Assembly (NCBI GenBank): GCA_051532055.1
Contig: JAOPTX010000016.1
Coordinates: 36,059-100,058, forward strand
DNA length: 64,000 nt
Source of the DNA: Fibrobacterales bacterium
GTDB lineage: Bacteria; Fibrobacterota; Fibrobacteria; Fibrobacterales; JAOPTW01
Reading direction: 5' to 3'
In this document: piece after piece, positions 9,043 through 53,271 of the stretch
Position numbering within the stretch: position 1 is the first letter of the stretch
Layout: every line of letters begins with the position of its first letter
Position numbers and translations under genes: made by a program
The notes under the pieces: model-generated
The model's database searches: none
Told to the model about the DNA's origin: nothing
Seen by the model: the letters and a program-made list of their open reading frames with translations, nothing else

Positions 9043-9075
9043 TGACAAATACTGTCACCGCTCCCATTCTATATT
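9043..9075 (+). promoter_or_regulatory. TGACA-AATAC-TGTCA box, 12 bp, then TATATT -10; ssb promoter
   Basis: Exact palindrome 9043-9057; -10 at 9070-9075. Confidence 0.7.
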
Positions 9076-9103
9076 TACTATAGAACTAAACGGGAGAACA
9101 ATT

Positions 9104-9493
9104 ATGGCATGTTTAAACAAAGTTACCCTCATTGGCAATTTGGGTGCAGATCCGGAAATCAAAACAACTGTGCAAGGTGTGAAACTCGCACGATTCAATG
9201 TAGCAGTTACCGAAAAATATAAAGATCAACAAAATCAGAAACAAGAGAAGACCCAATGGTTTACCGTCATTCTCTGGAGACGTCTTGCTGAGATAGCAGA
9301 ACAGTTTCTTAAAAAAGGTTCTATGGTCTATATTGAAGGCAAACTGGAAAATTCGAGCTGGGATGATGAAAAAACTGGTGAGAAAAAATATAAGACTGAA
9401 ATTCATGGACTTAACATGCAGATGCTTAGTTCATCAAAACATGTTTCTGAATATGCTGTTGGTCATTCAAACATGAGTACTATGGCATATTAA
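9104..9493 (+). CDS. ssb: Single-stranded DNA-binding protein, short form without acidic tail
   Basis: LNKVTLIGNLGADPE, TQWFTVILW, KGSMVYIEGKL, KYKTEI; GGAG RBS. Confidence 0.93.
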   Translation: MACLNKVTLIGNLGADPEIKTTVQGVKLARFNVAVTEKYKDQQNQKQEKTQWFTVILWRRLAEIAEQFLKKGSMVYIEGKLENSSWDDEKTGEKKYKTEIHGLNMQMLSSSKHVSEYAVGHSNMSTMAY

Positions 9494-10214
9494 TGCCATA
9501 ATTTTTAAAGATATTCTTGTACAATCCTTGGCGCTTGATCGTTTTTAGACCACGGTTAAACGCCTCAAGAAGCTCCCTTGCGCGAACACTTTTTTTTGAT
9601 ATTCCAACATAGGACAAATGTCTCTGTAAAGGATTCTTCACCGCCTGAATGTGATGACTTTTGTCAACGTTAATAAGAATAGAGTTCGCAACTCTCTCAG
9701 TTTCGACAACAAGGTCCACACGTCCCTTGATGAGGCGGATAAAATTCTCTTTATTACTCACGTCCTCAACCCGCTTAAACGAAGTTGCACTATCAAATTC
9801 AGGACTATTGGCATATCCTCTACCAACCCCAATATGCAGGCCGCTTAAACTTTCTAATCCCCTGTACATAAACCCATCTGTTTTCCTCTTGTAAAAAAGC
9901 ACTCGGAGTGTATCAATCGGCGTACTGTACAGCAAATATGACTCACGTTCTTTGGTTTTATACACTCCCAAAATCGCATCATAACTTCCGACCTTCGTAC
10001 CATGTAATGCTCTTGCCCAAGGAACAAAATTAAGCTTCACTGAATACCCAACTGATTTATATGCCGCAGTAACTATCTCAGTATAGAGCCCTCCTCGTTT
10101 ATCCGATTCTGTAAGATAGGGTGGATAATCATATTGAATTGCCAAACGTACAACGGGTCTCCCTATTGCGCATCCAATCATTACAACTATGATTACTATT
10201 ATTTTTTTAAGCAT
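9480..10214 (-). CDS. Family 3 (PAAT-type) periplasmic substrate-binding protein
   Basis: Signal peptide, YPPY, PWARAL, KERE, GRVD. Confidence 0.85.
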   Translation of the reverse strand: MLKKIIVIIVVMIGCAIGRPVVRLAIQYDYPPYLTESDKRGGLYTEIVTAAYKSVGYSVKLNFVPWARALHGTKVGSYDAILGVYKTKERESYLLYSTPIDTLRVLFYKRKTDGFMYRGLESLSGLHIGVGRGYANSPEFDSATSFKRVEDVSNKENFIRLIKGRVDLVVETERVANSILINVDKSHHIQAVKNPLQRHLSYVGISKKSVRARELLEAFNRGLKTIKRQGLYKNIFKNYGINMP

Positions 10215-10267
10215 AACTTACGCAGTTAAAACGAACCTATAGTGTACCATAATTTATCAAAATAATC

Positions 10268-12538
10268 TTACTTTCTTAAAATTCGCTCTGAGACCCCTGA
10301 TCTACGCATTATTGACTGCCCAACTGCCGAAATAACACTTTCAGCACCCCCTACAATACCCGCGAAATACTTCGCACGAGTGACTGCAGTATAGAGAATT
10401 TCTTTAGTCATGACACGATTCATCTCTTTCGGGAGAGCAATCAACGCATATTCATACTCAGAACCTTGAGATTTATGAACCGTTATGGCAAAAGCAGTAT
10501 CAAATTGAGCGATATCTGAGACGGGATATATCCCAACAGAATCATTTTCCGGAATTGCAATAAAGTAGTTGTCACCAGATGCAATCACCACTCCACAGTC
10601 ACCATTAAAAACCCCATGGGTATAGTCGTTTTGGGTTATCATAACCTGAAGCCCTGGATAGACTCCCTCACGTACTTCGTACTGAAGTTCACCCTGCATA
10701 TACTCAAAGAGAATTTGATTTATTATGGCAGTCCCAACAGGTCCACTTCGAGTGACTCCCAAAATTTGAGATTGATTCATATAGGCGAAGAGTTCTGTAA
10801 AAAGTTCCTTCACTGTTGCATCTTCTACAATTTTGGTCCGTATCTCAGATGGTGTCAAGCCACTCTTCATTTTTTTTGTTAGGGCTGCAATTATCCCGCA
10901 ATACGAATGGGTACGAGTCCATGCATTATGGTATACCGATGTTTCTGCATAAGGTTGATCAACCAAATGAAACCGACACCAATCAATAAGGAGTTCTTTG
11001 AATGGGTCACGCTCTTTGGTTCGTTCACCTGGTTCAAGGAGTAGAGTGCCCTGAGTATTACACCGTTTTGCCCCTTCATCATCTATCACAACCATGGGCC
11101 ATTCAGGGTATCCATGTACATGAGGTAATTCCGCTACTACTCTCTCTGCGTCTTGCTTATTAATTAAGGCACTCAAAGAAAGAATTGAAGCTTCTGAACG
11201 ATGACTTTTACTGAGTACCACCATTGAATCTTTTAATAGATGATGAGCGCCGAGTTCAAGGTTTTTACATGAGGCATCGTCCATCTCGGTTCCAAGAATA
11301 TTTTGAAGCGCCTTGACTGATTCGGATGTCAGACTCGGGTTACCCTCTGGAATAGTTTTTCCAAATAGGTCACTCAGAACTGCCCCTGCCTGTACCGAAG
11401 GAAGCTGATTGTGATCACCTAAAAGAATAATACGGGTATCAGACTGGAGCGCCTCAATAATATTCAGGAAGAGTGCAGCGTCTACCATAGAAACTTCATC
11501 AATAATTACAATTTTCGCCGGGTGCTTATTATCACGACCATAAGTAAAGCGATTACGCCCTGGGTTATATTTTAAAAATCGGTGGATCGTTTGGGAGTCA
11601 ATAGAATCGAGCAGCGAGTCCTTCATATCTGATTCACCTTGAGGAATGAGCGCAACACTTTGTTCAACCGATTCCGCCATTCGCGCTGCAGCTCTACCCG
11701 TTGGAGCCACCATACTGATCTGATTTGAGTGTAAGTGAGGATTGAGCCGCACTAATACCCGAAGAAGGGCAACAACCGTACTTGTTTTACCGGTACCAGG
11801 CCCACCTGAAATAACAGAGAACTGTTTCTGTGCCGCCATCAAAACCGCCGCTTGCTGACGCAGATGAAAATGCATGGGACGAGAACCCAGCACCATAGGT
11901 TTTTCTATAAAGACATCGTTATAGGCCAATTCCAAATCAGGAGAAATAGTTAAAGGAGCCGTATCAATGATCGAATCGAGCCAGAGAGAGAGACGTTTTT
12001 CTACCCCAAAGTATTTCCCCGTATAAAACCCATAAGTCGCATCATACACAAACAGTGAGCTACCACTAGGGCCTTCGCAAAAAACAGGACCGAGCATATC
12101 CAGTCTTGATACCACATGATTCATTGCACTGGAAAATTGATGTTTGAGTGCAATCGAATCAAATAGAGAGACGAGTTGGTCTGCCAGAACGACATCTTGA
12201 GTTACAATTTTCTTACGTTCAATATACCCTTCAATCACCTCAATAATTTCTTGGTCTGTTTCACCAGGTAAATAATAGAGATGTCCCAACCCAGTAGAAA
12301 CAATAATTAATAGTTGGGCAAGGGTACTATGCGAGTCACGGACATTATTATTTAATAACCTATCTGAAAGTGTAGTCAATGAAAGATGAGCACCATCGAT
12401 ACAACCCGATTCTACAAGAAGATACACTGCAACAAAAAAAATATCTTCTTTCTCACTTGGCCTAATACCACCTTTGAGAGCCGCCTCACTCGGACCAATA
12501 GTTTCAATCCAGCACCGGGTCTGTAGTAATGCATCCAT
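10268..12538 (-). CDS. recD: Exodeoxyribonuclease V alpha subunit
   Basis: SGGPGTGKT, APTGRAA, DEVSMV, GDHNQLPSV, TVHKSQGSEY, LYTAVTRA. Confidence 0.93.
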   Translation of the reverse strand: MDALLQTRCWIETIGPSEAALKGGIRPSEKEDIFFVAVYLLVESGCIDGAHLSLTTLSDRLLNNNVRDSHSTLAQLLIIVSTGLGHLYYLPGETDQEIIEVIEGYIERKKIVTQDVVLADQLVSLFDSIALKHQFSSAMNHVVSRLDMLGPVFCEGPSGSSLFVYDATYGFYTGKYFGVEKRLSLWLDSIIDTAPLTISPDLELAYNDVFIEKPMVLGSRPMHFHLRQQAAVLMAAQKQFSVISGGPGTGKTSTVVALLRVLVRLNPHLHSNQISMVAPTGRAAARMAESVEQSVALIPQGESDMKDSLLDSIDSQTIHRFLKYNPGRNRFTYGRDNKHPAKIVIIDEVSMVDAALFLNIIEALQSDTRIILLGDHNQLPSVQAGAVLSDLFGKTIPEGNPSLTSESVKALQNILGTEMDDASCKNLELGAHHLLKDSMVVLSKSHRSEASILSLSALINKQDAERVVAELPHVHGYPEWPMVVIDDEGAKRCNTQGTLLLEPGERTKERDPFKELLIDWCRFHLVDQPYAETSVYHNAWTRTHSYCGIIAALTKKMKSGLTPSEIRTKIVEDATVKELFTELFAYMNQSQILGVTRSGPVGTAIINQILFEYMQGELQYEVREGVYPGLQVMITQNDYTHGVFNGDCGVVIASGDNYFIAIPENDSVGIYPVSDIAQFDTAFAITVHKSQGSEYEYALIALPKEMNRVMTKEILYTAVTRAKYFAGIVGGAESVISAVGQSIMRRSGVSERILRK

Positions 12539-15500
12539 TATTTATCTCCACTTATTTCAGGGTGCGCATCACGAATCATTTTTTCAATATCTATAGTATA
12601 GTGTTCTTCAATTATTGTTGCAGACTCTGGGCACATACATACATATCCATCATTGGATCCGGGCTGCATGCCTCGTATATAGAGATAGTAGACGCCACCA
12701 AAATGAGTATCAAAAGAGTAGCCAGGTAGGGCTGCCTGTAACCAACGATGGAGAGCAAGCGCATAAACCTGCAATTGTATATCATAATGATCTCGAATCA
12801 TACTCTCTTCAATTGCCTGGGCATCATAGCCATTTTCTAAATAATTTGATTTCCAATCGAGAATGTAATAACGTCCCTCAAAACGGAAGAGCAGATCAAT
12901 AAATCCTTTTACAAAATGAGCATCTTCATTCTTTGTAAAAAGTTGCACGCTCTCTGAATGGAGATAACTAAACTGAAACTCCATTTCAGCTTTAAGATCT
13001 TTTTCGGGAATTGTTGCCAGGGAAAAGGTATTGAACGGGTTGCGCGCATCGATCATCGGGGCAGTTAAACAGTTATGTATCAATCGTCCAATTGCCCGAT
13101 AATGCTGAGATCCAATACCATATTTTGTACAATAGAATTCAATTACATCCGCTGTCTTTTTATTCTTAAGTAGTGCAACCCCTGCATCTTCTCCAGACAA
13201 TGCACCCACTTCGGCAAAGGAGATATGTTCAAAAATATCGTGTAAGCAATTACCCGGCTCAGCTCCTCGGGGAATATCTTGAATATATTTATCAAACTGT
13301 GCCGGCCGTGGAGCCGTGGGCACAACACCGATAGAGGTAATTACCCGATTATTTTCATTAACAGTATGAGAAAGATGCGAGTACGACTCCATTATAATTT
13401 TTTTCTTAGAAAAACCAGAATAGTTAGGGATAACACCCACCAACTCTTTTACCATTTCTTCAGAAGGAGGTTCAACCTGTGTCGCTTTATACTCTTCACA
13501 ATCAGGATTTATAGTGACATAGCCTGAAAGCGTGTCATTGAGTGCGCCTGTAATAGCGGAAGTAAGTACCCGCCTCATCCCTACTTTTTGATTCACTTTT
13601 TCGGAACCCATAAGCGGCATATAGAGAAAGTATTTAGCCCGAGTAAGTGCTACATAGAGCAACCTGGTATATTCTGCAAGCCTCTTTTCTAAGGGTTCTT
13701 TTTGAGTAAAATCAAAGTGCCGGTGATCACTCTCTTTAGTGACCACATAGTTATTCATTTGTAATTCACCAAAACCACCGAGAAAAACCACATTAAACTC
13801 AAGGCCCTTAGATGCGTGCATAGTCAATATCTGTACTGCTGCATCATCACGTTCTTTCCGATAGAGTTCACCATCATCTTCACGTTCAAGACGCTTCGCC
13901 CGCCAATTTTTAAGGAGCGCGACTTGATCCTCAAGAGACAACTTTTTGCGATATGCCTCAGTTTGTAGGTCCTGCATTACTTGTTTATACGCATCAAGCT
14001 CTCGAAACCTATTAGGGCCAATTGTTATAGTACGTAACAGCTCTGTATCGTGTAAAAAAGAGTGGTAGAGCTCCCCCCATCTCCGTCGAGTAACCAGGCT
14101 GTGCCATCTATCATAGAGCACTCGTCGAGCACTGTCATTTTGGTGCTCGCCCAGCCCCCTCTCACCTTCTCCAAAAAAAGGCGTAAAGAGCGCTTTGGTT
14201 GCTGTATCAGGTGCAGCATCTGAGATACTCTCAAGAAGGTAGAGTATATGAGCCGATTCTTTTGACTGATAGACACCCTGCTGCTTATAATAGCTATAGG
14301 GTATTCCCCGCTCTTGGAGAAGTGATTCAAAATGAGTTACATCCCCTCGTTTCTCAACAAGGATTGCCATATCACTCCACTCTGCTCCTTGTACACGAAG
14401 ATCAAGAAGCGCATCAACCATCCAAGGATAATACTCTTCTCGATTTCCACCGAGACCCTCGCTTAACAATTCTTTCACCACAAATGGAGTGTATGTATCA
14501 TTCACCTTAAAACGTTCGTAAAAGGTTCCCGGTCTTTGGGCGGGCGAGGCATCAGGATAATGAACAGGGCTATATGTAATAGCACCCTCTGCAGTATCAT
14601 AACCAAAAAATGATGGTCGAGAAAAGAGGGCATTAAAGGCCTCAAGTATTCGCTTGCTCGAACGATAGTTGTCAGAGAGCGTGTGCATAACTTCATGACC
14701 AGAGAATGAAAGCATCTCTTCTTTGGCTCTATAATAGGTTTCAATATCAGCACCCCGAAAAGAGTAAATTGCTTGTTTTGGGTCACCAATAAGAAATAAA
14801 CGTGTATAGGTCGTTCTTAAAAAGAGAGTTTTAAATATATCCCATTGCGCGTCATCAGTATCTTGAAATTCATCAACCAATACCACATGATATTGACCAC
14901 GAATCCTCTGTGCAATATCTGGATTCGTTGTCACAAGTGTGCGCACTCGTTGTATCATATCATTAAAAGTAAAGAGCGACTGATTCTCTTTGGTCTCGCA
15001 GACTTTCTCGATTAACCGACTCAATAGCGGGATAATTCGAGCAGCCTCTACCTCTGTGTGGTAATTGACTGCTGCCTCACACAATGAAACAACAGCCTTT
15101 ACCACTACACTATAACTCTTACCATTGCAGTAAGGAAAAATTGTTTCATCATCAATATCAAACTGGGGATCATCACATTTTGATCCGAGCCATCCGGGTT
15201 CACTTTTTTGTCCCTTAAATTGTCTAATAAAACTATTCAGTGGTTCGGGACTAGTATCACTTTCACATTGTTCAATAACACCGCCCAATGCACCCCAAAA
15301 CATTTCGGTCCACTCATCAAACTTAGGGAGTTTTTTCCCTTTATTGAAAGCCCCTTTATGGGCGACAGCGACTTCTCTCTGTCGATCACCAAAAGCACTT
15401 AAGGTCGTATTGAAATCTATTCCCACTTGTTGTTTGAATAAGCCTATGCTCTCAGTAAATGGCTTCAGGGCTTCCCCAACCACCGTATCACTCTTACTCT

Positions 15501-16029
15501 TCTGTTCGGCAATAGCAATAAATACAGACTTTAAGAGATCATCAACATTTAAGTACGGACTCGATTTTACCAGACGTACCAACTCCGGATACTCTTTTGA
15601 CCATTCACCTTTGAATAGTTCGATACACTCCTGTACAATAAGTTCACGCTCATCAGTGAGTTTCTCTTGAAATGAACGCCCTGATTCAAATGGAATTTTT
15701 TGCAATACCTTTTTACACCACCCATGAATGGTATACACTTCTGCCGTTTCAAAATCACGAATAGCTTGCATGAGTCGAGCACACTCATCATGCCCTAATG
15801 CCTCACCATGAAGTTCACGGGAATGGAGTGTTTCAAGTAGTCCTTCTCGAATACGCTCACGCATCTCACCTGCAGCTTTTTCGGTGAACGTTACCAGCAG
15901 GATTTCATTAATACATGTCTCACTTGAGCGAAGTATCTCAAGAACCATCTGTTGAATAGTATAGGTTTTACCCGTTCCAGCCGATGCCTCAATCCACCCA
16001 TTGGGTCGTGTTGCTATTTCTTTAAACAT
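12538..16029 (-). CDS. recB: Exodeoxyribonuclease V beta subunit (helicase-nuclease)
   Basis: IEASAGTGKT, DEFQDTD, GDPKQAIYSFRGAD, HASKGLEF, LYVALTRA; nuclease GFIDLLF...ILDWKSN. Confidence 0.95.
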   Translation of the reverse strand: MFKEIATRPNGWIEASAGTGKTYTIQQMVLEILRSSETCINEILLVTFTEKAAGEMRERIREGLLETLHSRELHGEALGHDECARLMQAIRDFETAEVYTIHGWCKKVLQKIPFESGRSFQEKLTDERELIVQECIELFKGEWSKEYPELVRLVKSSPYLNVDDLLKSVFIAIAEQKSKSDTVVGEALKPFTESIGLFKQQVGIDFNTTLSAFGDRQREVAVAHKGAFNKGKKLPKFDEWTEMFWGALGGVIEQCESDTSPEPLNSFIRQFKGQKSEPGWLGSKCDDPQFDIDDETIFPYCNGKSYSVVVKAVVSLCEAAVNYHTEVEAARIIPLLSRLIEKVCETKENQSLFTFNDMIQRVRTLVTTNPDIAQRIRGQYHVVLVDEFQDTDDAQWDIFKTLFLRTTYTRLFLIGDPKQAIYSFRGADIETYYRAKEEMLSFSGHEVMHTLSDNYRSSKRILEAFNALFSRPSFFGYDTAEGAITYSPVHYPDASPAQRPGTFYERFKVNDTYTPFVVKELLSEGLGGNREEYYPWMVDALLDLRVQGAEWSDMAILVEKRGDVTHFESLLQERGIPYSYYKQQGVYQSKESAHILYLLESISDAAPDTATKALFTPFFGEGERGLGEHQNDSARRVLYDRWHSLVTRRRWGELYHSFLHDTELLRTITIGPNRFRELDAYKQVMQDLQTEAYRKKLSLEDQVALLKNWRAKRLEREDDGELYRKERDDAAVQILTMHASKGLEFNVVFLGGFGELQMNNYVVTKESDHRHFDFTQKEPLEKRLAEYTRLLYVALTRAKYFLYMPLMGSEKVNQKVGMRRVLTSAITGALNDTLSGYVTINPDCEEYKATQVEPPSEEMVKELVGVIPNYSGFSKKKIIMESYSHLSHTVNENNRVITSIGVVPTAPRPAQFDKYIQDIPRGAEPGNCLHDIFEHISFAEVGALSGEDAGVALLKNKKTADVIEFYCTKYGIGSQHYRAIGRLIHNCLTAPMIDARNPFNTFSLATIPEKDLKAEMEFQFSYLHSESVQLFTKNEDAHFVKGFIDLLFRFEGRYYILDWKSNYLENGYDAQAIEESMIRDHYDIQLQVYALALHRWLQAALPGYSFDTHFGGVYYLYIRGMQPGSNDGYVCMCPESATIIEEHYTIDIEKMIRDAHPEISGDK

Positions 16030-19000
16030 ACAACCCCTAGTATCGCGCCAAACCTATGTAAGTACACTTCAAGAGAGTCTGGTCGATATACTTTAAAGCG
16101 ATCAAATCCTAAATAATCGGGGACATAACTCGCTGAACAGTGACTTTCCCAAGCGGTCTCTATGGTAGTTACTACCTCTTGATAGAGTTCTTGATTAATA
16201 ATCGGTTTTTGGTCCTCTTCTGCAAAAGCTAATAATGATTCTTTTATGGGATCACACTTCTCAAGTCCTAACAACTCAAAACTTTCCGCTATCGCACCAT
16301 CTGATGATAAGCTCCCCGTATAAAGAGATTCAAAGGGAAGAGAATAAAGGTTTTCGGTTAATACCATTTCTGCAAGAAGCTCTTTGAGGCGTCTATCCGA
16401 GCCACTCAATGAGAGAGGTATTTTAAATTTCCTAATCGTACTCTTTTCGAGGCTACTCCAACACCATACCTCCACTCCATTCTGTACCTGTTCTTTGTAT
16501 GAATCAGTTTGAGCAAGAATAAGGAGACGCACATAGGCTATGAGTAGATGCTTGGGTTGAAAACTTTTTGTAAAATTATTGGGGACCAACATTATGGGGA
16601 GTTGGCCAGTAGATGAAACAAAGAGATGACCAGTGTTTCCTGTCACTTCTATTATATGATGTTCACCCGGAAGAGCAATTGGAATAGTTACCGATTGAGG
16701 CATTACGTATTGATATTCTTCTAAGTGCGTTTGCATACTATGAATACGCTCAATTTCAATTGATGCACCTTCGATAGTTTTTTCGAGGGCAATCTCACCC
16801 AGTACTGAAGTCGGTAAATTACCTAAGCGACAATTCCGGTCCCACTCGTCTTTAATAATACTCTGTACTCGATGCTCCCCAATTTCTTTTTCTAGACCAA
16901 ACCACTCCGTCAGTATTGTTTCAACAACCGCTCCTTTAATAGCACCCGCTTGGAGCATTGCAACTGTCAATGGTTCTTCAGACTCAATTGAGTGATCTTC
17001 ATCATCACCCCAAAGCCCGTACTTCTGTTGTAGCCGGTAGACTAATGGGTTTTCTAAAAACCGTTTTAAATGCCCCTCAGTTACTACAACATCGTCATTC
17101 AGACTCACCGGTATGGAAACATATTCACTCGTGTACGTTTCTGTCTCTTGCTGTAGCAAACTCGAAAGGTGTGCAAAGTGAGATGAGTAACTCGGAACGG
17201 TATACGTATCACATTGAGGCAGTTCAATAAGTGGTTGAGTATGCCCTCCTGTAAATAGACGACTATCACTATTAAGTAATGGAATATGACATCCCTTCAC
17301 CTGCGTAGTCAGAAGATAGTCATTGAAAAACTCTTTCAGTTCGGACACTAGCGAGCTTTGTTGAAGTGGCTCATCTTTTTTAAGGTCCATAGAGAGATAA
17401 CTCAATACCAGTTGTTCTTTAACTGAGGTTATAACTTCTAAAAAGAGATACCGATCAGTCTCAATAGGGGAAAAATCTCCTATTTCACGACGACACCCTC
17501 TGAGATCTAACGATCCATAACTCATACGCGAAGGAAAAACCCCTTCATTGAGTCCTAAGAGATACATACTTCTATAGGGAACCGGTGGCTTTGGACTCAA
17601 TGAAGTAACCGTTACGCCACCAGTGAGATAACTTCCGCCAAATCCTGGGAGGTCAATGAGTAATCCCAAAATAAATTCTTGGAGGAGTACCCAAGGAATA
17701 GTGCTTGACTTCCTCTGAAGAAGGGTCACCCGTGTCAATTCTTCATACAGTTGATCTCGTAACTTTTTCTCCGACTCGAGTTCTTCGGGTACACTGCACC
17801 ACGTTGTAAAAAAGAGCGGTAAAAAGGTGAGCCACTCAGAAACTGATTTTTGTTTTTTAAGTGCTGAAAGATCGCGATAGAGCAATTCAATAGTTTCAAC
17901 AAAAAGAGAGAGCAGTGCACTATTTTGCGAATCAATATCACTATAGGCCTCAAGAGCATCACCAACAACACTCCCTACTTCCGTAACTTGGCCAAGAAGC
18001 AGTCGATCCAAGGCCATTCTCCAGGTGTGAATATACTCTTCTGCATAGCCAGCACTCTGCCGATGGCTTTGATCAAAATGACGATAAATATTTAGACGTT
18101 CCGCCCACCCCACAAAGGTTGTGACCATCTCGGGCGTGATACCTCGAGCCGCTTGTACACAGGGGTTCTCCAAAAATGAAAACAGTTCTTTACGCGTAAA
18201 ATGACTCCCCGAGAGAGCCATCAAATCACGCACCGCCTGGCTATAGACACTAGTACTTGAGGTGCCATCGATGAGGCTATAAGGAATGCGCTCATGCCCT
18301 TCACTATTACGTGCCTCAAAGACCTGTTGTACTACGGGTGCATACCGTTCAAGGTCTGTTACAAATACTGCGATATCATGAAAACGCATCGTAGGATTGA
18401 GTCTGAGGGTATGGACAATACTATCATAGAGTGTCTCAACCTCTCGTTTAATTTCAGGTGCACTCCAAAACTGAACTGATGCATCTTGTTTTACAGGGGT
18501 GATATCTGTTGTTCTCTTGAGAAGTGAATGCTGAAGAGTTCCAAGGATAGTTTTTGTATCATGAGGTTCACTATAGCGATCAGCAAAAGCATAGTCTGTC
18601 GCCTGACACCAAAGCTGTATCCCTTCACGTCCTGGCCTTCCCCACTCTGCAAGAAGAGGATGCATCTGACCCTGTTCTTCTGGGAGAACCTCATCCATAA
18701 GGGCGTCTTCATCTTTGGTCAGTACATTCCGTTCTTCATCACTCAGCAGATTCCAGGTGCCAGTGTGTTGAATACGCCGCTTCTCCGAAACAAGATCTTC
18801 CCAAAACTCTGCACAAGGATTAAGGGCATAGACATTAAAAGTAACCCCCAACTCCGAGAGGGTAAAAATAAGGCTTCGATGAAACAGTGATATTTGAGAC
18901 ATTGCAAATATATGCCATGTTTCACCCTTACACGGTTCAGCATCAAAACTTTCTTCAGCTTTAAATACCTGCCGTGCATACATAGGGAGTGAGCAGTACC

Positions 19001-19643
19001 AGTCACTATTCGCTTCGGCGTAGCGACCGAGTACACCTCCTTCACCAAAGAGTTCTCGGTAAAGCGCTTTCTGCCAGAGCTCCACCTGCCCAAACCAAGT
19101 CTCTTCGTCAGGGCGAACGCCCTTTCCAATTTTTTTAGAAAAAAGAAGAAGATCTACATCAAGCCACGACTCAATCACTCCTTCACATGAGGGACTTTTG
19201 ATGCGCTTAAATTCATAATCAATAAAGACCGTAGCTATCTGTGTTGCAAGCTGCATCAATTTCCGGAAATAGAGACCCTCACTACTCTCTGTATCTCCTA
19301 AATATTTTTTAAGAGGCTCATACACCGGCAGAGCCATAAGCTCAGTATCCATCAAGCAATGAGCGACAAAGAGTGAAAGTGATGCTTTATTGAGGGGTTC
19401 AGCAGAGCCTTCCTCGTAAGTATCTATTTCTTGAAGTAATCGCCACAAGTTTTTTTCTAATCGTCCTACCTGCAAGTTTGCCACAATACCATCGCGCTGG
19501 GCCATATGGTATTGCAACCAAGTCCCCATCTGGCCACCCACAATTATAGGGTCGGGATTAAAGATATCATCGGGCTGATAATTATCGCGCAACTTCTCAA
19601 AGAGCTGCATAGTATCGTTACTAAAAAAGAGGTTTATAGCCAT
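16014..19643 (-). CDS. recC: Exodeoxyribonuclease V gamma subunit
   Basis: LNPCAEFW, HPLLAEWG, REVE, DIAVFV...YAP, DRYLFLE; first gene of recC-recB-recD. Confidence 0.9.
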   Translation of the reverse strand: MAINLFFSNDTMQLFEKLRDNYQPDDIFNPDPIIVGGQMGTWLQYHMAQRDGIVANLQVGRLEKNLWRLLQEIDTYEEGSAEPLNKASLSLFVAHCLMDTELMALPVYEPLKKYLGDTESSEGLYFRKLMQLATQIATVFIDYEFKRIKSPSCEGVIESWLDVDLLLFSKKIGKGVRPDEETWFGQVELWQKALYRELFGEGGVLGRYAEANSDWYCSLPMYARQVFKAEESFDAEPCKGETWHIFAMSQISLFHRSLIFTLSELGVTFNVYALNPCAEFWEDLVSEKRRIQHTGTWNLLSDEERNVLTKDEDALMDEVLPEEQGQMHPLLAEWGRPGREGIQLWCQATDYAFADRYSEPHDTKTILGTLQHSLLKRTTDITPVKQDASVQFWSAPEIKREVETLYDSIVHTLRLNPTMRFHDIAVFVTDLERYAPVVQQVFEARNSEGHERIPYSLIDGTSSTSVYSQAVRDLMALSGSHFTRKELFSFLENPCVQAARGITPEMVTTFVGWAERLNIYRHFDQSHRQSAGYAEEYIHTWRMALDRLLLGQVTEVGSVVGDALEAYSDIDSQNSALLSLFVETIELLYRDLSALKKQKSVSEWLTFLPLFFTTWCSVPEELESEKKLRDQLYEELTRVTLLQRKSSTIPWVLLQEFILGLLIDLPGFGGSYLTGGVTVTSLSPKPPVPYRSMYLLGLNEGVFPSRMSYGSLDLRGCRREIGDFSPIETDRYLFLEVITSVKEQLVLSYLSMDLKKDEPLQQSSLVSELKEFFNDYLLTTQVKGCHIPLLNSDSRLFTGGHTQPLIELPQCDTYTVPSYSSHFAHLSSLLQQETETYTSEYVSIPVSLNDDVVVTEGHLKRFLENPLVYRLQQKYGLWGDDEDHSIESEEPLTVAMLQAGAIKGAVVETILTEWFGLEKEIGEHRVQSIIKDEWDRNCRLGNLPTSVLGEIALEKTIEGASIEIERIHSMQTHLEEYQYVMPQSVTIPIALPGEHHIIEVTGNTGHLFVSSTGQLPIMLVPNNFTKSFQPKHLLIAYVRLLILAQTDSYKEQVQNGVEVWCWSSLEKSTIRKFKIPLSLSGSDRRLKELLAEMVLTENLYSLPFESLYTGSLSSDGAIAESFELLGLEKCDPIKESLLAFAEEDQKPIINQELYQEVVTTIETAWESHCSASYVPDYLGFDRFKVYRPDSLEVYLHRFGAILGVVCLKK

Positions 19644-19649
19644 GGTTGA

Positions 19650-19681
19650 AATATAAGTATTTTACCAGACAATAATTGTCA
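19650..19681 (-). promoter_or_regulatory. TGACA-ATTAT-TGTCT box, 11 bp, then TATATT -10; recCBD promoter (probably leaderless)
   Basis: One-mismatch palindrome 19667-19681; -10 at 19655-19650; ATG 6 nt downstream. Confidence 0.7.
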
Positions 19682-34853: not shown

Positions 34854-36218
34854 ATGAAAAAGCTACTGATATTTATAATCTCATTTGCTGCGCTACTCTC
34901 TGCAACAGAGGTTGGTGACACCAAGAATGCTGACTCTTTTGATACATATGATCTCTCAGGCTTTGAAGATGAGATGGATGACGCTGATGAAGTATTTGAT
35001 GAAGAGGAAGGAGAATCATCTTCACCGCTCTCCTATGAGGGCTATATGGATGGGCGCATTGGTTCACGAATCTATTCAGGTAAAGACAACGACCAATTCA
35101 CCCTTGTCGAACTCAGGTTACGGACCGCCCTTCAGGCTGACTTTAACCATGTAAACCTCAAAGTTGTACTTGATCTGCTGTACGACCCAATCGAACATCC
35201 TGACACTGTTGATTTCTATCAAGGAAATGGATGGCTCGATTTAAGAGAAGCGCATTTTGGAACTGCCCTCGGTAATCTTGACCTCCGGGTGGGACGCCAA
35301 GCAGTTACATGGGGAACTGGTGATATGCTCTTTATTAATGATCTCTTTCCTAAAGATTGGAAATCTTTTTTTATTGGACGCGATCAGGAATTTCTTAAAG
35401 CACCACTTGATGGTGTAAAGAGTTCGTTTTACACGCCGTATTTCTCTCTCGACTTTGTATGGGTACCCTTTTTTGCATCAGACAGATACCTTGATGGTAA
35501 TCGTGTGAGCTTCTTTGGCCCATCAGGTCAGATAACCGGCAAAACCTATGAATTTGATGCAGAGGAACCCGACTCTTTTGGGGATGACTCCGAGTATGCG
35601 GTACGTCTTCACACAACTGTTAGCGGTTACACTGCAGCGCTCTATGGCTACCACGGTTTTTGGAAAAGTCCGAGTGGCATGACTGAGACAGGTCAATTTT
35701 ATTACCCTAAATTACAGGTTTATGGGGCCTCACTGCAAGGGCCACTCTTAGGTGGGCTTGCCAACGCAGAAGTCGGCCATTACCACTCTAAAGAAGATGT
35801 AGGTGGTTTTAATCCTATGATTCCAAACCCTGAGATGCGCTACCTTTTTGGTTATGAACGAGAAGTGTTTTTAAATATAATGGCAAGTGCACAATACTAC
35901 CTAGAGTACATGCTTGAGTATGCCCCATACACTCAAACCCTTTTTCCCGGCATGAATGCCAAAGAGGAATATCGTGATCTCATTACTCTTAGACTAACCA
36001 AGTACTTTCTCATGCAGACCCTTACCTATTCACTCTTTGGGTATTTTTCACCTGCTGATGAAGATGGATACATCAAGACATCACTTGCGTACAAGATATC
36101 AGACACCATCCAGGTCGATGGAGGAATCAATATTTTTAGTGGCACCAATGAGTACTCTTTTTGGGGACAATTTGAATCAAACTCGAATGTGTATGCCGGG
36201 GTTAAGTATCGTTTTTAG
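34854..36218 (+). CDS. Outer-membrane beta-barrel (DUF1302-like) partner of MMPL system
   Basis: Signal peptide, LREA...GRQAVTWG, C-terminal YAGVKYRF. Confidence 0.75.
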   Translation: MKKLLIFIISFAALLSATEVGDTKNADSFDTYDLSGFEDEMDDADEVFDEEEGESSSPLSYEGYMDGRIGSRIYSGKDNDQFTLVELRLRTALQADFNHVNLKVVLDLLYDPIEHPDTVDFYQGNGWLDLREAHFGTALGNLDLRVGRQAVTWGTGDMLFINDLFPKDWKSFFIGRDQEFLKAPLDGVKSSFYTPYFSLDFVWVPFFASDRYLDGNRVSFFGPSGQITGKTYEFDAEEPDSFGDDSEYAVRLHTTVSGYTAALYGYHGFWKSPSGMTETGQFYYPKLQVYGASLQGPLLGGLANAEVGHYHSKEDVGGFNPMIPNPEMRYLFGYEREVFLNIMASAQYYLEYMLEYAPYTQTLFPGMNAKEEYRDLITLRLTKYFLMQTLTYSLFGYFSPADEDGYIKTSLAYKISDTIQVDGGINIFSGTNEYSFWGQFESNSNVYAGVKYRF

Positions 36219-36513: not shown

Positions 36514-36642
36514 ACCCCTCATACACCCACAACTCACATAGTGCTCAAAAAAGCACTAACTTTCTATTTATCCCCTTGCAAAGCAATACGTTAGCACCTA
36601 TATTGCCCATATGTGCAGTGCACGTTTGAATGAGGAGAATAG

Positions 36643-43976: not shown

Positions 43977-44072
43977 AATTGTTTATCCTATCAATAATTC
44001 TACCATAAAAATACTCAATTTTAAATTTTAGTATGGTATAATAATTGGTATTCACTATCCATTAGTACTCTT

Positions 44073-46777: not shown

Positions 46778-46783
46778 TAATAT

Positions 46784-47029: not shown

Positions 47030-47273
47030 ATTCCCACCAACTCCAATCACATTTGTTCCATAAGTGAAACCATTTTACTGTTGATCACAATAGGAGTCAA
47101 GATTATAACCACACCTTTAAAATTTTTAGTACCGCATCACATAAAATAGAATTAAGATTTCTAATTCCTCAAACGACTTTTTTGTGCACTCAGGAATATT
47201 TATTTTTAAGAGCGCTCAGTCATGGTGAGATTACCGAGTTGCCCCTCTTTTTTTTTCTATGTTTCACGGTACT

Positions 47274-47972: not shown

Positions 47973-48026
47973 CCGCAAGTACCAAAAATTATTTGACCCA
48001 GACTCATTTTAGGTATATTTATTCTG

Positions 48027-48722
48027 ATGAAAAATATACCTACTCTTCTTTCGCTCCTCATTATTGCAGTACTCACTCTGTTGATCTGTTCATGCAATAA
48101 CCCCAGTGACAAACGATATCCAGTCAAAGGAATCGACGTTTCTCACCACCAAGGTGACATTATATGGGATAGCATCATTAATCAACAGATAACCTTTGCG
48201 TTTTTAAAAGCTACCGAGGGTGAAAACCATAAAGACACTCGGTTCGAAGAGTATTGGGCCGCTATTTCAAAGAGCTCAATAAAAAAAGGCGCCTACCATT
48301 TTTTTAGCTTCTGTAAAGAGGGGGCTGTGCAGGCAAAAAATTATATTGAATCAGTAACACTTACTCACGGTGATTTACCACCCGCTGTGGACCTTGAGTT
48401 CGCAGGAAATTGTAAAAATGCATTTGACACCCCAAAGCTTGTCGCTGAAATACGTATCTACCTCGACAGTATTGAAGGTCATTATGGAGTCAAACCCGTA
48501 ATATACACCACAAACAGATTTTATAAAGAGATAATCTTTGAGCATTTTAAAGACCAAAACATCTGGATTCGAAACACCTATTTCAACCCATCTCTTTCCA
48601 ATCGTAAAAATTGGATTTTTTGGCAGTATAAAGTAGGGCCATTCCCTGGCATAACTGGAGATGTAGATCTGAATGTTTTTAATGGGTCATTAGACAAACT
48701 AAATACCTACTGTATTCCATAA
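48027..48722 (+). CDS. GH25 lysozyme/muramidase lipoprotein
   Basis: GIDVSHHQG, KATEG, GAYHFF, DLE, WIFWQY, VDLNVF. Confidence 0.92.
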   Translation: MKNIPTLLSLLIIAVLTLLICSCNNPSDKRYPVKGIDVSHHQGDIIWDSIINQQITFAFLKATEGENHKDTRFEEYWAAISKSSIKKGAYHFFSFCKEGAVQAKNYIESVTLTHGDLPPAVDLEFAGNCKNAFDTPKLVAEIRIYLDSIEGHYGVKPVIYTTNRFYKEIIFEHFKDQNIWIRNTYFNPSLSNRKNWIFWQYKVGPFPGITGDVDLNVFNGSLDKLNTYCIP

Positions 48723-49267
48723 CGGGTCTGTAAGTAAGAATTGAGTTTTTGATACTCATCTCTCCGAGGGACAAAGTTTGCATCACCCTCAATAAGTTCC
48801 TCTAATATTGAATAAGGATGCCAGATTACCTCGGTTACCTCTTCAGCTTGTAGTGCAAATGACTCGAGTGTTGTATCATTCTCTACAAGATACACATACT
48901 GAAAAACCTGTTCAAAAAGAGTTTGCGTCTGAAGAGATGTTTGTACTGTAAAGAGATACAATAATGCTGATTCAGTAATCTCAAGTCCAATTTCTTCAGA
49001 AACCTCTCTCACGGCACTCACCGTAAGAGTATCATTATCAACAACATGTCCAGCCGCGCTTAAATCCCACAACCCTGGATATATTTCTGCGGTTGGGGAG
49101 CGCTTTTGAAAAAGAAGCTCACCGCTAGGGTTCACAATCCAAACATGCACGGTAGCATGCCAGTCACCATCTCTGTGGGCATCGCGACGACTCTTAAACT
49201 GGTCGGTCGGGTCGCCCGTTTCTGTATATATTCTCAGTTGCTCATCCAGTGCCATCAATGCCTCCAC
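48707..49267 (-). CDS. NUDIX hydrolase (IPP isomerase type 1-like)
   Basis: AHRDG.WH, FQKRS, WDLSAAGH, REVSEEIG. Confidence 0.85.
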   Translation of the reverse strand: MEALMALDEQLRIYTETGDPTDQFKSRRDAHRDGDWHATVHVWIVNPSGELLFQKRSPTAEIYPGLWDLSAAGHVVDNDTLTVSAVREVSEEIGLEITESALLYLFTVQTSLQTQTLFEQVFQYVYLVENDTTLESFALQAEEVTEVIWHPYSILEELIEGDANFVPRRDEYQKLNSYLQTRYGIQ

Positions 49268-49389
49268 AATGCTTAATCTCCTCTAAAAACAGCATCAAAA
49301 GGAGATCTCAGCAATAATCTAGGTATTTTTTTATTTTTCTCACCAAATCAGTATCACATTCTTATAGTCTCACCGTTTTACTTACAGAT

Positions 49390-49872
49390 ATGAATAATAG
49401 ACAACTAGAGAACCTATTTATGCAGTTTTCACCCCTTGCATTTTCTGTAAGTGTCTCAGTCCTTCATTCCCGTGAAGAAGCTGAAGATGTTGTACAAGAG
49501 CTCTTTCTCAACCGAGTACCTAAAATGATGGAGCGCTATAGCACTGTAAGCCCTGAAGAGATGGGCCGTATTATCGCACGCAGTGCAAAAAACCTTTCTA
49601 TTGATATGTTTCGTAAAAAAAGGCGCTATCCTGAGCAACAAATCCTGGAATCAGATGCCGTGACTGAAGTTGAAAACCCTACAGAAACTCCAGAGGTGAC
49701 CACATTCCTTGATGCAGTCAATGAAACCGATCGTGAAGTACTGACTCTAAAATATCTCAACAAGCTCACATGGAGCCAGGTTGCAGAAATCCTTGGTCTC
49801 TCTGAAGTGGGCTCACGAAAACGGGGACGCATTGCACTTGAACGCATTAAAAACTTGGTGAAACGAGGGTAA
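49390..49872 (+). CDS. ECF RNA polymerase sigma factor
   Basis: EAEDVVQELF, NLSID, TWSQVAEILG. Confidence 0.85.
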   Translation: MNNRQLENLFMQFSPLAFSVSVSVLHSREEAEDVVQELFLNRVPKMMERYSTVSPEEMGRIIARSAKNLSIDMFRKKRRYPEQQILESDAVTEVENPTETPEVTTFLDAVNETDREVLTLKYLNKLTWSQVAEILGLSEVGSRKRGRIALERIKNLVKRG

Positions 49873-49873
49873 T

Positions 49874-50647
49874 ATGAAACAGAAACTACTCAGCGATATA
49901 GATATGCAACTCTTTCTTGCCCGAGCACTCCCTTGGTACAAACGACTCTTTATCCGTATTCTCCTCCTCCTTTCGCCAGAATTACAGAAACAATATTCAA
50001 AAATTGCAGCAGAAAACACTGTTTTTATGAACCGTGAACAACCACGACTCCACCAATCTCTCTTTGAAAAAAACAGCACGCGTGCCCCCATTAAAAATAG
50101 CTCTCCGTTTTTGGCGCCCTGGTTCAAACCTGCAATCTCTTTTGCCACGGTCGCCCTTATTGCCCTCCCCATGATTACCACCTACATGGCCACAAGTACC
50201 GATAGTCCAGATCAACCCTACTACGCCGCAAAAGGCTCAGGCCTCGGAGTTTCCCTTTTTAAAAAAGAGCGAGAATACACCCTCCTCAGTGACGCCCATG
50301 TCAACCTCAATATTCTTGACACACTCCAACTTATGCCTATGGGAACATCAAGCCAATTTGTTGCACTCTATACACTGCACAACAACAAGCTCTCTCGCAT
50401 TTATCCAGAAAACACCAAAACGCTCGTTCTCTTTAATGAGCAAACGCTCCCCCCATCACTCATTTTTGATGGCGATACCACCAGGCTCATAGCTGTTACA
50501 GCCACAATCCCCCATGCTCTTACCAAAGTTGAACAAATCATTACGGGCTTTTCATCAGACTACAACCAAACACCTCCTCTTTCTCACCTTGTTGATAGTA
50601 TCTATATTCAGCCATTTCTTATTACCTTAGAGACTTCTCATGATTAA
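49874..50647 (+). CDS. Putative single-TM anti-sigma factor with periplasmic domain
   Basis: Directly follows sigma gene; TM near residues 85-105, then YAAKGSG. Confidence 0.6.
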   Translation: MKQKLLSDIDMQLFLARALPWYKRLFIRILLLLSPELQKQYSKIAAENTVFMNREQPRLHQSLFEKNSTRAPIKNSSPFLAPWFKPAISFATVALIALPMITTYMATSTDSPDQPYYAAKGSGLGVSLFKKEREYTLLSDAHVNLNILDTLQLMPMGTSSQFVALYTLHNNKLSRIYPENTKTLVLFNEQTLPPSLIFDGDTTRLIAVTATIPHALTKVEQIITGFSSDYNQTPPLSHLVDSIYIQPFLITLETSHD

Positions 50648-52433
50648 GCACCTTGTTCTCTCTATCGTCTTTATCTCTCTCACCCTCAGTGCATCACCAC
50701 AGTGGGCTAAGGTAAATGTTATCGTAGCCAGTAAAAGTGGTCTATCAAATGACACAGAATTGCGCTATGCTTATAATGACGCCCAAAAGATGAGTACTAC
50801 TCTTACAGAACTCAGCGATATCGATCCCAACAACAACTTTCTCATCACTACAGAATCTACATCAGAGTTACGAGAACAGCTCACCGCCATTAGCACACAT
50901 ATTGCGAAGCTCAAACAAACGAATAAAATTCTCCTGCAATTTTATTACTCTGGACATGGTTCAGGGAGTAGCTTCCATATTGGCAACGAAAAGTTTCTTT
51001 TCAAAGAGGTCAAATCATTACTCAACACCCACAGCATTGACACCCGTATCTTCATTCTTGATGTCTGCTTTGGGGGTACCTTCCTCAACACCAAGGGATT
51101 TACCAAAGCAAAACCAATCTCAGTCAACCTCGATGTCAATGATGTTACTAAAGGTGAAGTGATCATTAGTTCATCCGCAATAAACGAACAGGCCTATGAG
51201 ATAGAATCACTCGAAGGATCAGTATTTAGTACCAACTGGATTATGGGCCTCAGAGGAGCGGGCGATAAGAATAGTGATGGTCAAGTTTCACTCTTTGAAG
51301 CGTACAACCACGCGTATGATCATACGGTAAATTACACATCCCAAACACTACAAAAACCGCAGCATCCTTCATATAACATGGACCTTACCGGCGCTCATGA
51401 TATTGTGCTAACCAAGCCCACCCTTTCCGCAAATGGTATCGTATTCGACAATTGCCCCAAAGGAATCTATACCATATATAACGCATCTCAGTTTCACACT
51501 ATTGGCGATGTTCGACTCTCAAATTCGGGGCGCTTCTTTTTAGCACTCCAAAGCGGCGTATACTCTATTACAACCCCCAATACTGATGGTCGTATTATGG
51601 AAGCCTCAGTGACCGTAACCAAATACCTTACAGAAGTGGCCTATACAGAGTTTGCACCCAAGAAGGAGTCAGCCATCATCCATAAAAGAAAAGGCTCCCG
51701 CAGTACCTATAAACAAAACTTTATATCTACCGTCTACAACAACTCTGGCGTCAATCTCTTACTCGGACTTGGACATCACTCTCTTTCAAAAATCACTCAA
51801 ACACTGAATACCCAAAATGACATTGAAGACCTATTTAACATCACCCCAGAGTACACCCTTGACGAGACGCTCTATACCAACTATGGTATAAATCTCATGC
51901 TCACTACAGGCAACTGGGGTATTACAGGTTACATCGAAGGGTATACTCAAAAAATCTCAATGAAAGCCTCAGGAACCGAACCCACTCAAGAGCCTCAAGA
52001 AGACCTTGATGTATTTGCTCTTGGGTCAATTGAATTATATCATATAGAAATTGGTATTGCTCTCCATAAACAGGTATTCCTACATCAAAACCAGAGTATC
52101 CATGGGGAATTTGGCGCTTCTTTAGTGAGTGAGAATTACACAAGTTCTTGGAGTTATGAGAGAAAAGCAATGCTCTTCCCCAAAGAGAACTATGAATTTA
52201 AAACAAACATGACAGGGGGACGCTACCATATTGCTGCCCGCTATCAGTATCGAATGGATACAACACTCAATCTTGCCCTTGGAGCAAAACTGAGCGCCTA
52301 CCTCCTCGACCTTGCCACCCACAATGTACCAACAGGTGAAAATGCAACAATCTTTCAAGAACTCAAAGGGCACTCCTTTGTTCCTGGAATTAAACTTGAT
52401 CTACTCCTCTTTATTGGCCCGCGGAGATTTTAA
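50640..52433 (+). CDS. Exported caspase-family (C14) protease with C-terminal beta-rich/barrel-like domain
   Basis: Signal peptide; LRYA..DA, YYSGHG, ILDVCFGG (His/Cys dyad), GLRGAGD..DGQVSL.E, QHP; ends in Phe. Confidence 0.8.
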   Translation: MIKHLVLSIVFISLTLSASPQWAKVNVIVASKSGLSNDTELRYAYNDAQKMSTTLTELSDIDPNNNFLITTESTSELREQLTAISTHIAKLKQTNKILLQFYYSGHGSGSSFHIGNEKFLFKEVKSLLNTHSIDTRIFILDVCFGGTFLNTKGFTKAKPISVNLDVNDVTKGEVIISSSAINEQAYEIESLEGSVFSTNWIMGLRGAGDKNSDGQVSLFEAYNHAYDHTVNYTSQTLQKPQHPSYNMDLTGAHDIVLTKPTLSANGIVFDNCPKGIYTIYNASQFHTIGDVRLSNSGRFFLALQSGVYSITTPNTDGRIMEASVTVTKYLTEVAYTEFAPKKESAIIHKRKGSRSTYKQNFISTVYNNSGVNLLLGLGHHSLSKITQTLNTQNDIEDLFNITPEYTLDETLYTNYGINLMLTTGNWGITGYIEGYTQKISMKASGTEPTQEPQEDLDVFALGSIELYHIEIGIALHKQVFLHQNQSIHGEFGASLVSENYTSSWSYERKAMLFPKENYEFKTNMTGGRYHIAARYQYRMDTTLNLALGAKLSAYLLDLATHNVPTGENATIFQELKGHSFVPGIKLDLLLFIGPRRF

Positions 52434-52435
52434 TT

Positions 52436-53203
52436 ATGCGTATACAACTACCGTCACTATTATTGAAAACACTGCTATTAACATACCCTTTATTGGTTTT
52501 GGGGTGTGCCGAAACCGCGATGTCTACGGATACGAGTCAAAGTACAGACTCATCATTAATTAGAACACTCAACTACACCTACATCGGTTCAAAGATTTTT
52601 CCTCTCGAACACTCCGGTAACTACACCTACAACTTTTTACAATATGATACTGAAGGCAATAAGGTAGACTCTACAACAAAATTTAAGTTAGAAATTTCAT
52701 CATACTCTGCCGGGCCTGATGACAGCTTTCTCTTTCACATGCCCGGAGATGAAGCAGACATTCTACAATGGAAGGGAGAAGACTACTCTGCAGATGAACG
52801 TGGCATTTATATCATTGGCCGATACGACACAAAGAAAAAGCGGGAAATTTCTACGGAGGCTGATCCTATCTTTTGGCTTCCTCAATCTCCCGAAAAAGGG
52901 GTGCGTACTCTGGGTAGTGACTATACCATCGAGTACCTTGGCAATGACTTCTCCTATATCATGAGCGTTGACAACTGTAGCCGCCCAGTCCTTGAAGAAG
53001 CAATGCTCTTTAAAGAAGAAGCAGGAGACTTCACCAACTACTACTACATCAAAAAAGGGGTTGGCATTTTAGGCTGGGAGAAATACTACAAAGGCATACT
53101 CACCGACATGGCCGTACTAAACAATATGAATTTTAAGACGGACGATGAAGATGATTACTACGCGCCTAATAGCTGTTATGAGGATAATTACTATAACGAT
53201 TAG
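52436..53203 (+). CDS. Hypothetical lipoprotein
   Basis: Lipobox VLGC; YYIKKGVG motif; 2 nt after caspase gene. Confidence 0.7.
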   Translation: MRIQLPSLLLKTLLLTYPLLVLGCAETAMSTDTSQSTDSSLIRTLNYTYIGSKIFPLEHSGNYTYNFLQYDTEGNKVDSTTKFKLEISSYSAGPDDSFLFHMPGDEADILQWKGEDYSADERGIYIIGRYDTKKKREISTEADPIFWLPQSPEKGVRTLGSDYTIEYLGNDFSYIMSVDNCSRPVLEEAMLFKEEAGDFTNYYYIKKGVGILGWEKYYKGILTDMAVLNNMNFKTDDEDDYYAPNSCYEDNYYND

Positions 53204-53238
53204 TACAAAGTAATCACTCAGAACATCTCAATTGGCCC

Positions 53239-53271
53239 TGTCAATAAGTGTCACTGTACCCGAGCTACCTT
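53239..53271 (+). promoter_or_regulatory. TGTCA-ATAAG-TGTCA box, 12 bp, then TACCTT -10; rmuC promoter
   Basis: One-mismatch palindrome 53239-53253; -10 at 53266-53271. Confidence 0.62.

Follow-up and report, generated by a model that had tools for sequence, protein, structure and literature searches.

The window analyzed here (64,000 nucleotides (nt) of contig JAOPTX010000016.1 from a Fibrobacterales bacterium, positions 36,059 to 100,058; G000:C16:36059-100058 in our notation) encodes a WYL-domain protein, P0001, whose family probably comprises homodimeric activators that resemble DriD and act on ssb, recC, and rmuC. DriD is a homodimeric WYL activator of the Gram-negative bacterium Caulobacter crescentus (PMC13004042, PMC10853764; PDB 8tp8, 9pfq, 9pfv). 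The predicted binding sites are palindromic boxes (NGWCA-N5-TGWCN, where W is A or T) whose right half precedes a -10 hexamer by 11 or 12 nt (N11 or N12). As judged from sequence comparisons, this composite likely belongs to a lineage-wide repair-and-defence regulon of a WYL activator of the DriD/DdaA type. G000 denotes the source genome and G001 its congener; f3 and f4 (the latter presumably Fibrobacteraceae) are families, and g6 a genus, among the relatives. The order sample comprised 61 genomes, and 17 genomes represented the class outside the order. Papers are cited by PMC number.

The original prediction held that the right half-sites before ssb, recC, and rmuC are followed by TAnnnT at a nearly fixed distance, and all three strings are present in the window (Table 1). 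When the right half was searched with a loose pattern (TGTCW-N10-13-TAnnnT), 17 matches were encountered in the window versus 23.4 expected, i.e. no more than chance would supply. However, the full box followed by N11/12 and TAnnTT occurred three times, compared to a mean of 0.047 (maximum 2) in 150 third-order Markov simulations. Only four NGWCA-N5-TGWCN boxes were found in the window, all of them intergenic (ssb, recC, rmuC, and the WYL gene). The ATG of ssb is located 28 nt beyond TATATT. That of recC is only 6 nt beyond it, and a leaderless mRNA would therefore result. The three boxes, their spacings, and their -10 hexamers are all retained in the congener; in the N12 spacer of ssb, 9 of 12 bases have changed between the two genomes, but the length is the same. 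Because a second TAnnnT (TACTAT) at N18 is likewise retained in G001 at ssb and rmuC, the -10 hexamers named for G000 are the probable ones. With the hexamer placed at -12, the box as a whole runs from about -38 to -24 and its right half from about -28 to -24. The earlier statement that the box occupies the -35 region needs correction to this extent: the part over the -35 position is the 5-bp centre. The box of the WYL gene is followed by TAnnnT at N13 (2332-2327) or N18 (2327-2322) and is a candidate for autoregulation of either sign.

Spacing was scanned with the pattern YGWCA-N5-TGWCR-N4..24-TAnnTT. Matches (control matches in parentheses) numbered 40 (3) in G039, 25 (1) in G029, 14 (5) in G002, 3 (0) in G006, and 19 (24) in G001. 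N11 accounted for 40 of these 101 matches and N12 for 21; every other spacing was represented four times or fewer, and N18 was absent. With the spacing fixed at N11/12, the pattern was present in 60 of the 61 genomes of the order, with 986 matches (median 16) compared to 20 for the reversed pattern that served as the control for this count. The single genome without the composite, G057 (94% complete), is also one in which no P0001 orthologue was found. Since the genomes are kin, this distribution was regarded as one lineage-wide trait, not as 60 tests. The same search with a LexA-type box yielded 38 matches over N0-24, with no more than five per spacing, and did not exceed its own control. Lone half-sites in G000 were not enriched at N11 and N12 (17 and 15, respectively, versus 19-33 at other spacings). 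In genomes from outside the class Fibrobacteria, composite matches are patchy, and their number is often close to that of the control.

Housekeeping promoters (examined in G000 and in 400 kb of G039) conform to TTG[AC]nn-N16/17-TAnnTT. Of 45 box promoters (G039 and G029), none had TTG at N16-18, whereas 16 of 79 background -10 sites did, a comparison in which the box pattern itself fixes some of the bases. The box promoters are without a canonical -35. A Bacteroidetes-type promoter was rejected as the source of TAnnTTT, because TTG[AC]nn stands 16-17 nt upstream in the housekeeping promoter; the notion that the box is a general housekeeping element was also rejected, as lone TGTCA has no preferred spacing.

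Both halves of the box are conserved. A total of 51 upstream regions of rmuC and recC were searched for the right half and the -10 hexamer only. Such a right half turned up at N11/12 25 times, in 18 instances together with a left half that is perfect and placed at N5 (chance about 0.015-0.03 for each). The remaining seven cases featured one left half with one mismatch, two left halves at N6, and four promoters with none; three of these four are from f3 (rmuC and recC of G006 and recC of G003).

Orthologues of P0001 were found in 58 of the 61 genomes of the order and in 9 of the 17 class genomes outside it; a word-index homologue search returned just two relatives. Alignment of the P0001 profile with DriD extends over positions 18-317, and that with PafB and PafC is confined to the WYL domain. 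A structural model of P0001 (predicted local distance difference test score 78) features a wHTH (winged helix-turn-helix; residues 7-74), helices (83-119), and the WYL and WCX domains. In Foldseek, this model matched DriD (8tp8) with an E-value of 1.8e-12, PafB with 1.3e-11, PafC with 2.4e-9, and BrxR/CapW with 2e-7 to 5e-5. The full-length profile match and the fold were both counted toward DriD-like activation. The recognition helix has an RxxxR motif in which R43 and R47 are invariant in 15 of 15 sequences (alignment A1); in a larger alignment (A2, 45 sequences), R47 is invariant and R43 is present in at least 90%. These arginines correspond to R37 and R41 of DriD, and Y168, Y194, R207, and R210 align with Y168, Y192, R204, and R207, which are residues of DriD for single-stranded DNA (ssDNA) (PMC10853764). 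The wing of P0001 has no Trp. No PafC-like partner was found: G000 has two further WYL matches on other contigs, one a YafY-like gene and the other a broken gene, and G002 and G006 (92-95% complete) have one WYL match each. The broken gene, also YafY-like (G000:C1:63100-64160), contains several stops and frameshifts.

In A1, the outer base of the box changes together with the helix residue ahead of the second RxxxR arginine: E or Q goes with C, K with G, and F or Y with T, while residue A is relaxed. At the corresponding position, E40 of DriD reads an outer C (PMC10853764). WYL proteins encoded in islands beside CGACA boxes have the helix RNVQR or RSVQR, and those of f4 have RTIFR or RTIYR. 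In the sister families, the helices (read in six of nine orthologues) are RTVKR, RTIKR, or RTAKR, and the nine genomes with an orthologue contain 55 matches to GGWCA-N5-TGWCC, 44 of them at N11/12; nine genomes in which no orthologue was found contain six in all. The T/A-type pattern is absent from those nine genomes with an orthologue, and the YGWCR pattern did not exceed the control in five sister-family genomes (57 versus 140). One genome, G139, has a P0001 orthologue and no GGWCA-N5-TGWCC match. The covariation supports the assignment of the P0001 family to the box and, as a simple recognition rule, is open to testing. Because the motif tracks the wHTH-WYL family encoded at 1298-2296, an activator from this family is likely. 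In two genomes, a single CGACA-N5-TGTCG box (G039:C1:1769890-1769938 and G029:C1:862300-862349) has a -10 hexamer at N11 or N12 on both sides; an island WYL gene adjoins it on one side and a divergent gene on the other.

With the outer bases left free, 11 composites were found in G000, and four directly precede repair genes: ssb, recC, rmuC, and sbcD (of sbcD-sbcC). Among the relatives, a composite is located upstream of radA in 11 of 21 cases and of sbcD in 7 of 19. The Pfam scan of 39 downstream open reading frames (ORFs) in G039 and G029 assigned families to 24, one of which is a mechanosensitive channel preceded by a box at N10. Besides RadA, RecC, CinA, a SNF2 helicase, a DnaQ-like exonuclease, and a DnaB-like helicase, the families include Cas9, HsdM, a C5 methylase, AbiH, an AbiEii-type ATPase, Fic, MqsR, RhuM, and a WCX protein. 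The composite is thus a mark of repair genes (ssb, recC, rmuC, radA, sbcD, cinA-recA) and of defence genes (Cas9, hsdM, Abi). Other families have it before dnaE, radC, and cinA, an integrase gene, and the gene of an anti-phage dCTP deaminase, as well as before a response regulator and TPR or surface proteins. A perfect box at N12 (G000:C44:8545), kept in G001, precedes a 106-residue cysteine-rich ORF that has no NCBIfam family and is a candidate damage gene.

The genes lexA and recA are encoded elsewhere in G000. The proximal promoters of recA and uvrA have a palindrome different from the WYL box, which we take to be the LexA box given a consensus of TGCNC-N4-GNGCA. The WYL box was consequently rejected as a LexA site: the composite is present in only 2 of 60 such upstream regions, namely those of recA in G000 and G001, where it is inside cinA. 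A perfect TGCCC-N4-GTGCA palindrome upstream of the mrfA-mrfB-radical SAM genes (window positions 36604-36617; kept in G001) is presumably of the LexA type by the same consensus. The window would thus hold targets of two damage regulons. In g6, radA (L384-L391, L395-L397) is leaderless, a LexA-like TGCAC palindrome covers its start codon, and the WYL box is present at N11/12; dual control is suggested by this arrangement. LexA of F. succinogenes has been studied; no more than that was confirmed (PMC3091678).

As extrapolated from DriD and DdaA, each wHTH of the P0001 dimer would read one GWC half-site using R43 and R47, a damage signal (probably ssDNA) having released the wHTHs. The dimer would keep the housekeeping sigma70 holoenzyme on a promoter devoid of a -35 element by contacting the beta subunit and the C-terminal domain of the alpha subunit (alpha-CTD) of RNA polymerase (RNAP), and region 4 of sigma70 (sigma4) would meanwhile remain on the opposite face of the DNA. 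The WYL regulon would operate beside a separate LexA regulon (recA, lexA, uvrA, and mrfA).

Several observations weigh against this assignment. The signal in G000 itself is modest (5 of 19 strict matches at N12, p about 0.03), and the total in G001 does not exceed the control, although 7 of its 19 matches are at N11/12; the relatives' genomes are not independent of one another. Two of the 11 composites in G000 are inside genes upstream of recN and recA, another five have no clear repair link, and Pfam assigned no family to 15 of the 39 targets annotated in G039 and G029. Some CGACA-N5-TGTCG matches adjoin other WYL genes in islands, and the composite counts therefore mix more than one regulator. 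Some orthologous promoters differ in the centre of the box (N4 to N6), with the right half at an unchanged position. Regarding the protein, P0001 is only 17-19% identical to DriD, and PafB ranks nearly as high as DriD in Foldseek. Further, R178 of DriD has no clear match in P0001, and the RxxR ssDNA motif, which P0001 keeps, has been lost from most f4 orthologues; the activating signal may thus differ, and the f4 proteins may sense another ligand or act without one.

The two G000 composites inside genes are found in nadK (G000:C12:59622, about 470 nt before recN) and in cinA (C37:20264, 106 nt before recA). Both are kept in G001, and they could be either internal promoters or the result of coding conservation.

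The original prediction likened the spacing to that of the PafBC promoter (TGTCGG-N10-TA-N3-T) and proposed that a homodimer on a palindromic site brings the same sigma adaptation to a non-actinobacterial diderm. The distance is equal, and a homodimeric activator is the best reading of the present data; sigma adaptation, however, appears unlikely. In that scheme, the proximal wHTH would occupy the half-site at -26 and the other would be off the DNA, gripping sigma4. PafBC itself recognizes tGTCgg-N10-tA-N3-T: PafB binds the -26 element, and the acidic helix 3 of PafC binds sigma4 instead of DNA, which its authors gave as the reason for a heterodimer (PMC8635444). The right half of the Fibrobacterales box coincides with this -26 position, PafB and PafC have Foldseek scores near that of DriD, and the authors of the work on SiwR consider a related mechanism plausible for a homodimer (PMC10693628). 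The scheme also retains some probability because the right half is a fixed anchor while the centre varies from N4 to N6, and three f3 promoters have the right half only. On the other hand, DriD has an equal spacing and does not adapt sigma. By our own count, the promoters of didA and CCNA_03891 (sequences in PMC13004042) have the right half, 11 nt, and CAnnnT; the optimized -35 in that paper is situated 17 nt before the CAnnnT hexamer by our assignment, and the spacing of the bapE promoter was not readable unambiguously. In the 2026 cryo-EM structures of DriD with RNAP, both helix-turn-helix motifs (HTHs) are on the DNA, contacts are made to beta and alpha-CTD, and sigma4 is on DNA (PMC13004042). 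Promoter spacing therefore cannot distinguish the mechanisms, because N11 is common to both; the separating feature is whether the second HTH is on the DNA. In this respect, the retention of the left half in 18 of the 25 unselected cases, together with the lack of enrichment of lone halves at N11/12, argues against sigma adaptation. P0001 also keeps both arginines and has no wing Trp, while PafC has its acidic helix 3 and PafB a wing tryptophan; the single WYL match in G002 and G006 stands against a heterodimer, and PafBC has been called the sole heterodimeric WYL factor (PMC11804915). Thus, with the spacing shared by DriD, both half-sites conserved, and no PafC-like partner found, the proposal of sigma adaptation was not borne out, and DriD-type recruitment is the better reading; nor is a palindromic homodimer site in a non-actinobacterial diderm new, having been published for DriD and DdaA. 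A prediction of the complex of the P0001 wHTH (residues 1-80) and sigma70 region 4 of G000 returned a score of 0.00 and is evidence for neither side. It is also conceivable, at long odds, that the homodimer finds the promoter by the full palindrome and that the distal wHTH then leaves the left half for sigma4. If true, this switch would constitute homodimeric sigma adaptation outside Actinobacteria, with a one-residue code for the outer base, and would drive, across the class, a regulon in which recombination repair is linked with Cas9, restriction, and abortive-infection genes.

The boxes could alternatively be operators of a repressor similar to BrxR/CapW, in which case a -10 at N18 would use the right half as its weak -35 and the hexamer at N11/12 would be incidental. 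N18 hexamers do exist, with TACTAT before ssb and rmuC and TATACT before the WYL gene, and G001 retains them; TTGTCA-N18-TATACT at the WYL gene is a plausible canonical promoter, and defence genes, at which the known WYL factors are repressors, make up many of the targets in the relatives. Yet recC has no N18 hexamer, none of the 101 matches in five relatives is at N18, and the LexA-type repressor box displays no comparable spacing peak (in a search that was not above its own control). The fold of P0001 is less like BrxR/CapW than like DriD or PafB, the sites are dispersed at a fixed spacing instead of forming a single operator at an adjacent defence operon, and the P0001 gene is kept in 58 of 61 genomes. 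A repressor appears improbable. Little probability was also given to an activator of the same geometry that is not P0001, e.g. the YafY-like WYL protein encoded on contig C42 of G000. Its helix is RTVYR, its neighbor gene has TGACA-N6-TGTCA-N11-TATGAT, and the rmuC box resembles TGTCA-N5-TGTCA direct repeats before many non-repair genes. However, the 6-bp centre of that site differs from N5, G002 and G006 have the N5 box with a P0001 orthologue as their only WYL protein, the outer base changes along with the orthologue's helix residue, and the gene of P0001 itself bears a perfect N5 box. Chance is a highly improbable explanation of the spacing. TAnnnT is common in AT-rich intergenic DNA (0.066 per site at one of the two spacings), and the window has no more matches to the loose half-site pattern than chance predicts, but the composite counts (3 versus 0.047 expected in the window; 986 versus 20 across the order) and the length of the ssb spacer, kept despite changes in sequence, oppose it. 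For the order as a whole, chance is already refuted; a single site could be due to chance.

Direct repeats of the type TGTCAACAAA/G-TGTCA are found before genes for lipoproteins and secreted proteins, without a -10 at N11/12, on G000 contigs C4, C22, C28, C35, C47, C72, C95, and C103; they are probably the site of another regulator. In recC of G126 and G121 (L278, L279), TATTAT is positioned 22 nt after the box, one helical turn beyond the usual distance; DdaA sites are likewise reported further upstream.

Table 1. Boxes, predicted -10 hexamers, and associated genes in the window (positions are those of the window)
Feature	Position	Strand	Remarks
WYL regulator gene (P0001, 332 residues; wHTH-helical bundle-WYL-WCX)	1298..2296	-	Pfam WYL 6e-11; likely box binder
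Box of WYL gene, perfect	2346..2360	-	Kept in G001
ssb box TGACA-N5-TGTCA	9043..9057	+	In G001, halves kept, centre differs
ssb predicted -10 TATATT, N12 after box	9070..9075	+	Kept in G001
ssb gene	9104..9493	+	Pfam SSB 4e-34
recC-recB-recD genes	10268..19643	-	recC 16014-19643 (Exonuc_V_gamma/RecC_C), recB 12538-16029 (UvrD-helicase and PDDEXK), recD 10268-12538 (AAA_19/SH3_13); families from Pfam
recC predicted -10 TATATT, N11	19650..19655	-	Identical in G001
recC box TGACA-N5-TGTCT	19667..19681	-	Identical in G001; directly 3' of the stop codon of the upstream dehydrogenase gene
rmuC box TGTCA-N5-TGTCA	53239..53253	+	Identical in G001
rmuC predicted -10 TACCTT, N12	53266..53271	+	Kept in G001
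rmuC gene	53304..54635	+	Pfam RmuC 6e-75

Pfam was applied to the genes of the window and identified the WYL gene, exonuclease I, ssb, recD-recB-recC, the mrfA-mrfB-radical SAM cluster, rmuC, and comM; the genes next to the WYL gene encode a dehydrogenase and a carbohydrate kinase. Two SSB genes are present in G000, and the second copy (contig C2) has no box upstream. In the region upstream of exoI on the minus strand (window positions 8088-8190), TATATT is located 7 nt before the ATG, so that the mRNA would be leaderless, and TCTCA, a degenerate half, is found at N11; about 90 nt upstream there is a TGWCA-N4-TGTCA element that is kept in G001. Two SpoVG genes are arranged in tandem upstream of comM (window positions 57308-57882). 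Elsewhere in G000, uvrA (C15:224173-229461) is a double-length open frame of about 1,770-1,790 residues, as it is in most genomes of the order that were searched.

In a literature search by title and abstract, with subscription papers and supplements mostly outside its scope, no WYL regulon or promoter motif of Fibrobacter was found. With the present analysis, an SOS-independent damage regulon under a WYL protein is predicted for one more lineage, the whole class Fibrobacteria, to which the cellulose degraders of the rumen probably belong; the likely regulator, the box, and the target genes (Cas9 and restriction genes among them) are provided. The recruitment mechanism itself is already known from DriD. 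The -26/N11 geometry is common to DriD and PafBC, and the spacing alone is thus not evidence of sigma adaptation.

Among the known systems, DriD is similar in its architecture (wHTH, three-helix bundle, WYL, and WCX) and RxxxR recognition helix, in a palindrome of 15 bp whose GWC cores are separated by 7 bp and whose centre is AT-rich, in the location of the box over the -35 position at a fixed N11 from the -10 with no -35 hexamer, and in a set of repair targets that coexists with a LexA regulon. DdaA of Acinetobacter and other Moraxellaceae binds CGWCA-N5-TGWCG, activates repair, restriction-modification, and CRISPR-Cas genes, and pulls down the alpha, beta, and beta-prime subunits of RNAP (PMC12392091, PMC13010146); its authors argue against sigma adaptation (PMC12392091). 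The W degeneracy of this site, the control of repair (ssb, recA) and of restriction-modification and CRISPR-Cas genes, and the lineage-wide distribution of the regulator are shared with the system described here. However, DdaA sites are reported to be about 50 bp upstream of the start, whereas the box is predicted here at -38 to -24, and DdaA is described as replacing the SOS system, whereas LexA is retained here. With PafBC are shared a GTC core at -26 read by two arginines, its placement 11 nt before the -10, the lack of a -35, and a repair regulon; the PafBC heterodimer, its one non-palindromic half-site, and the PafB wing Trp were not found here. In PafBC, the PafC HTH is on sigma4 and not on DNA. 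SiwR of Mycobacterium smegmatis is a homodimer that binds a palindrome at -26 (PMC10693628). It is similar as a homodimeric WYL activator on an imperfect palindrome over the -26 region, but it differs in serving one adjacent dinB-family operon and in its GGA core.

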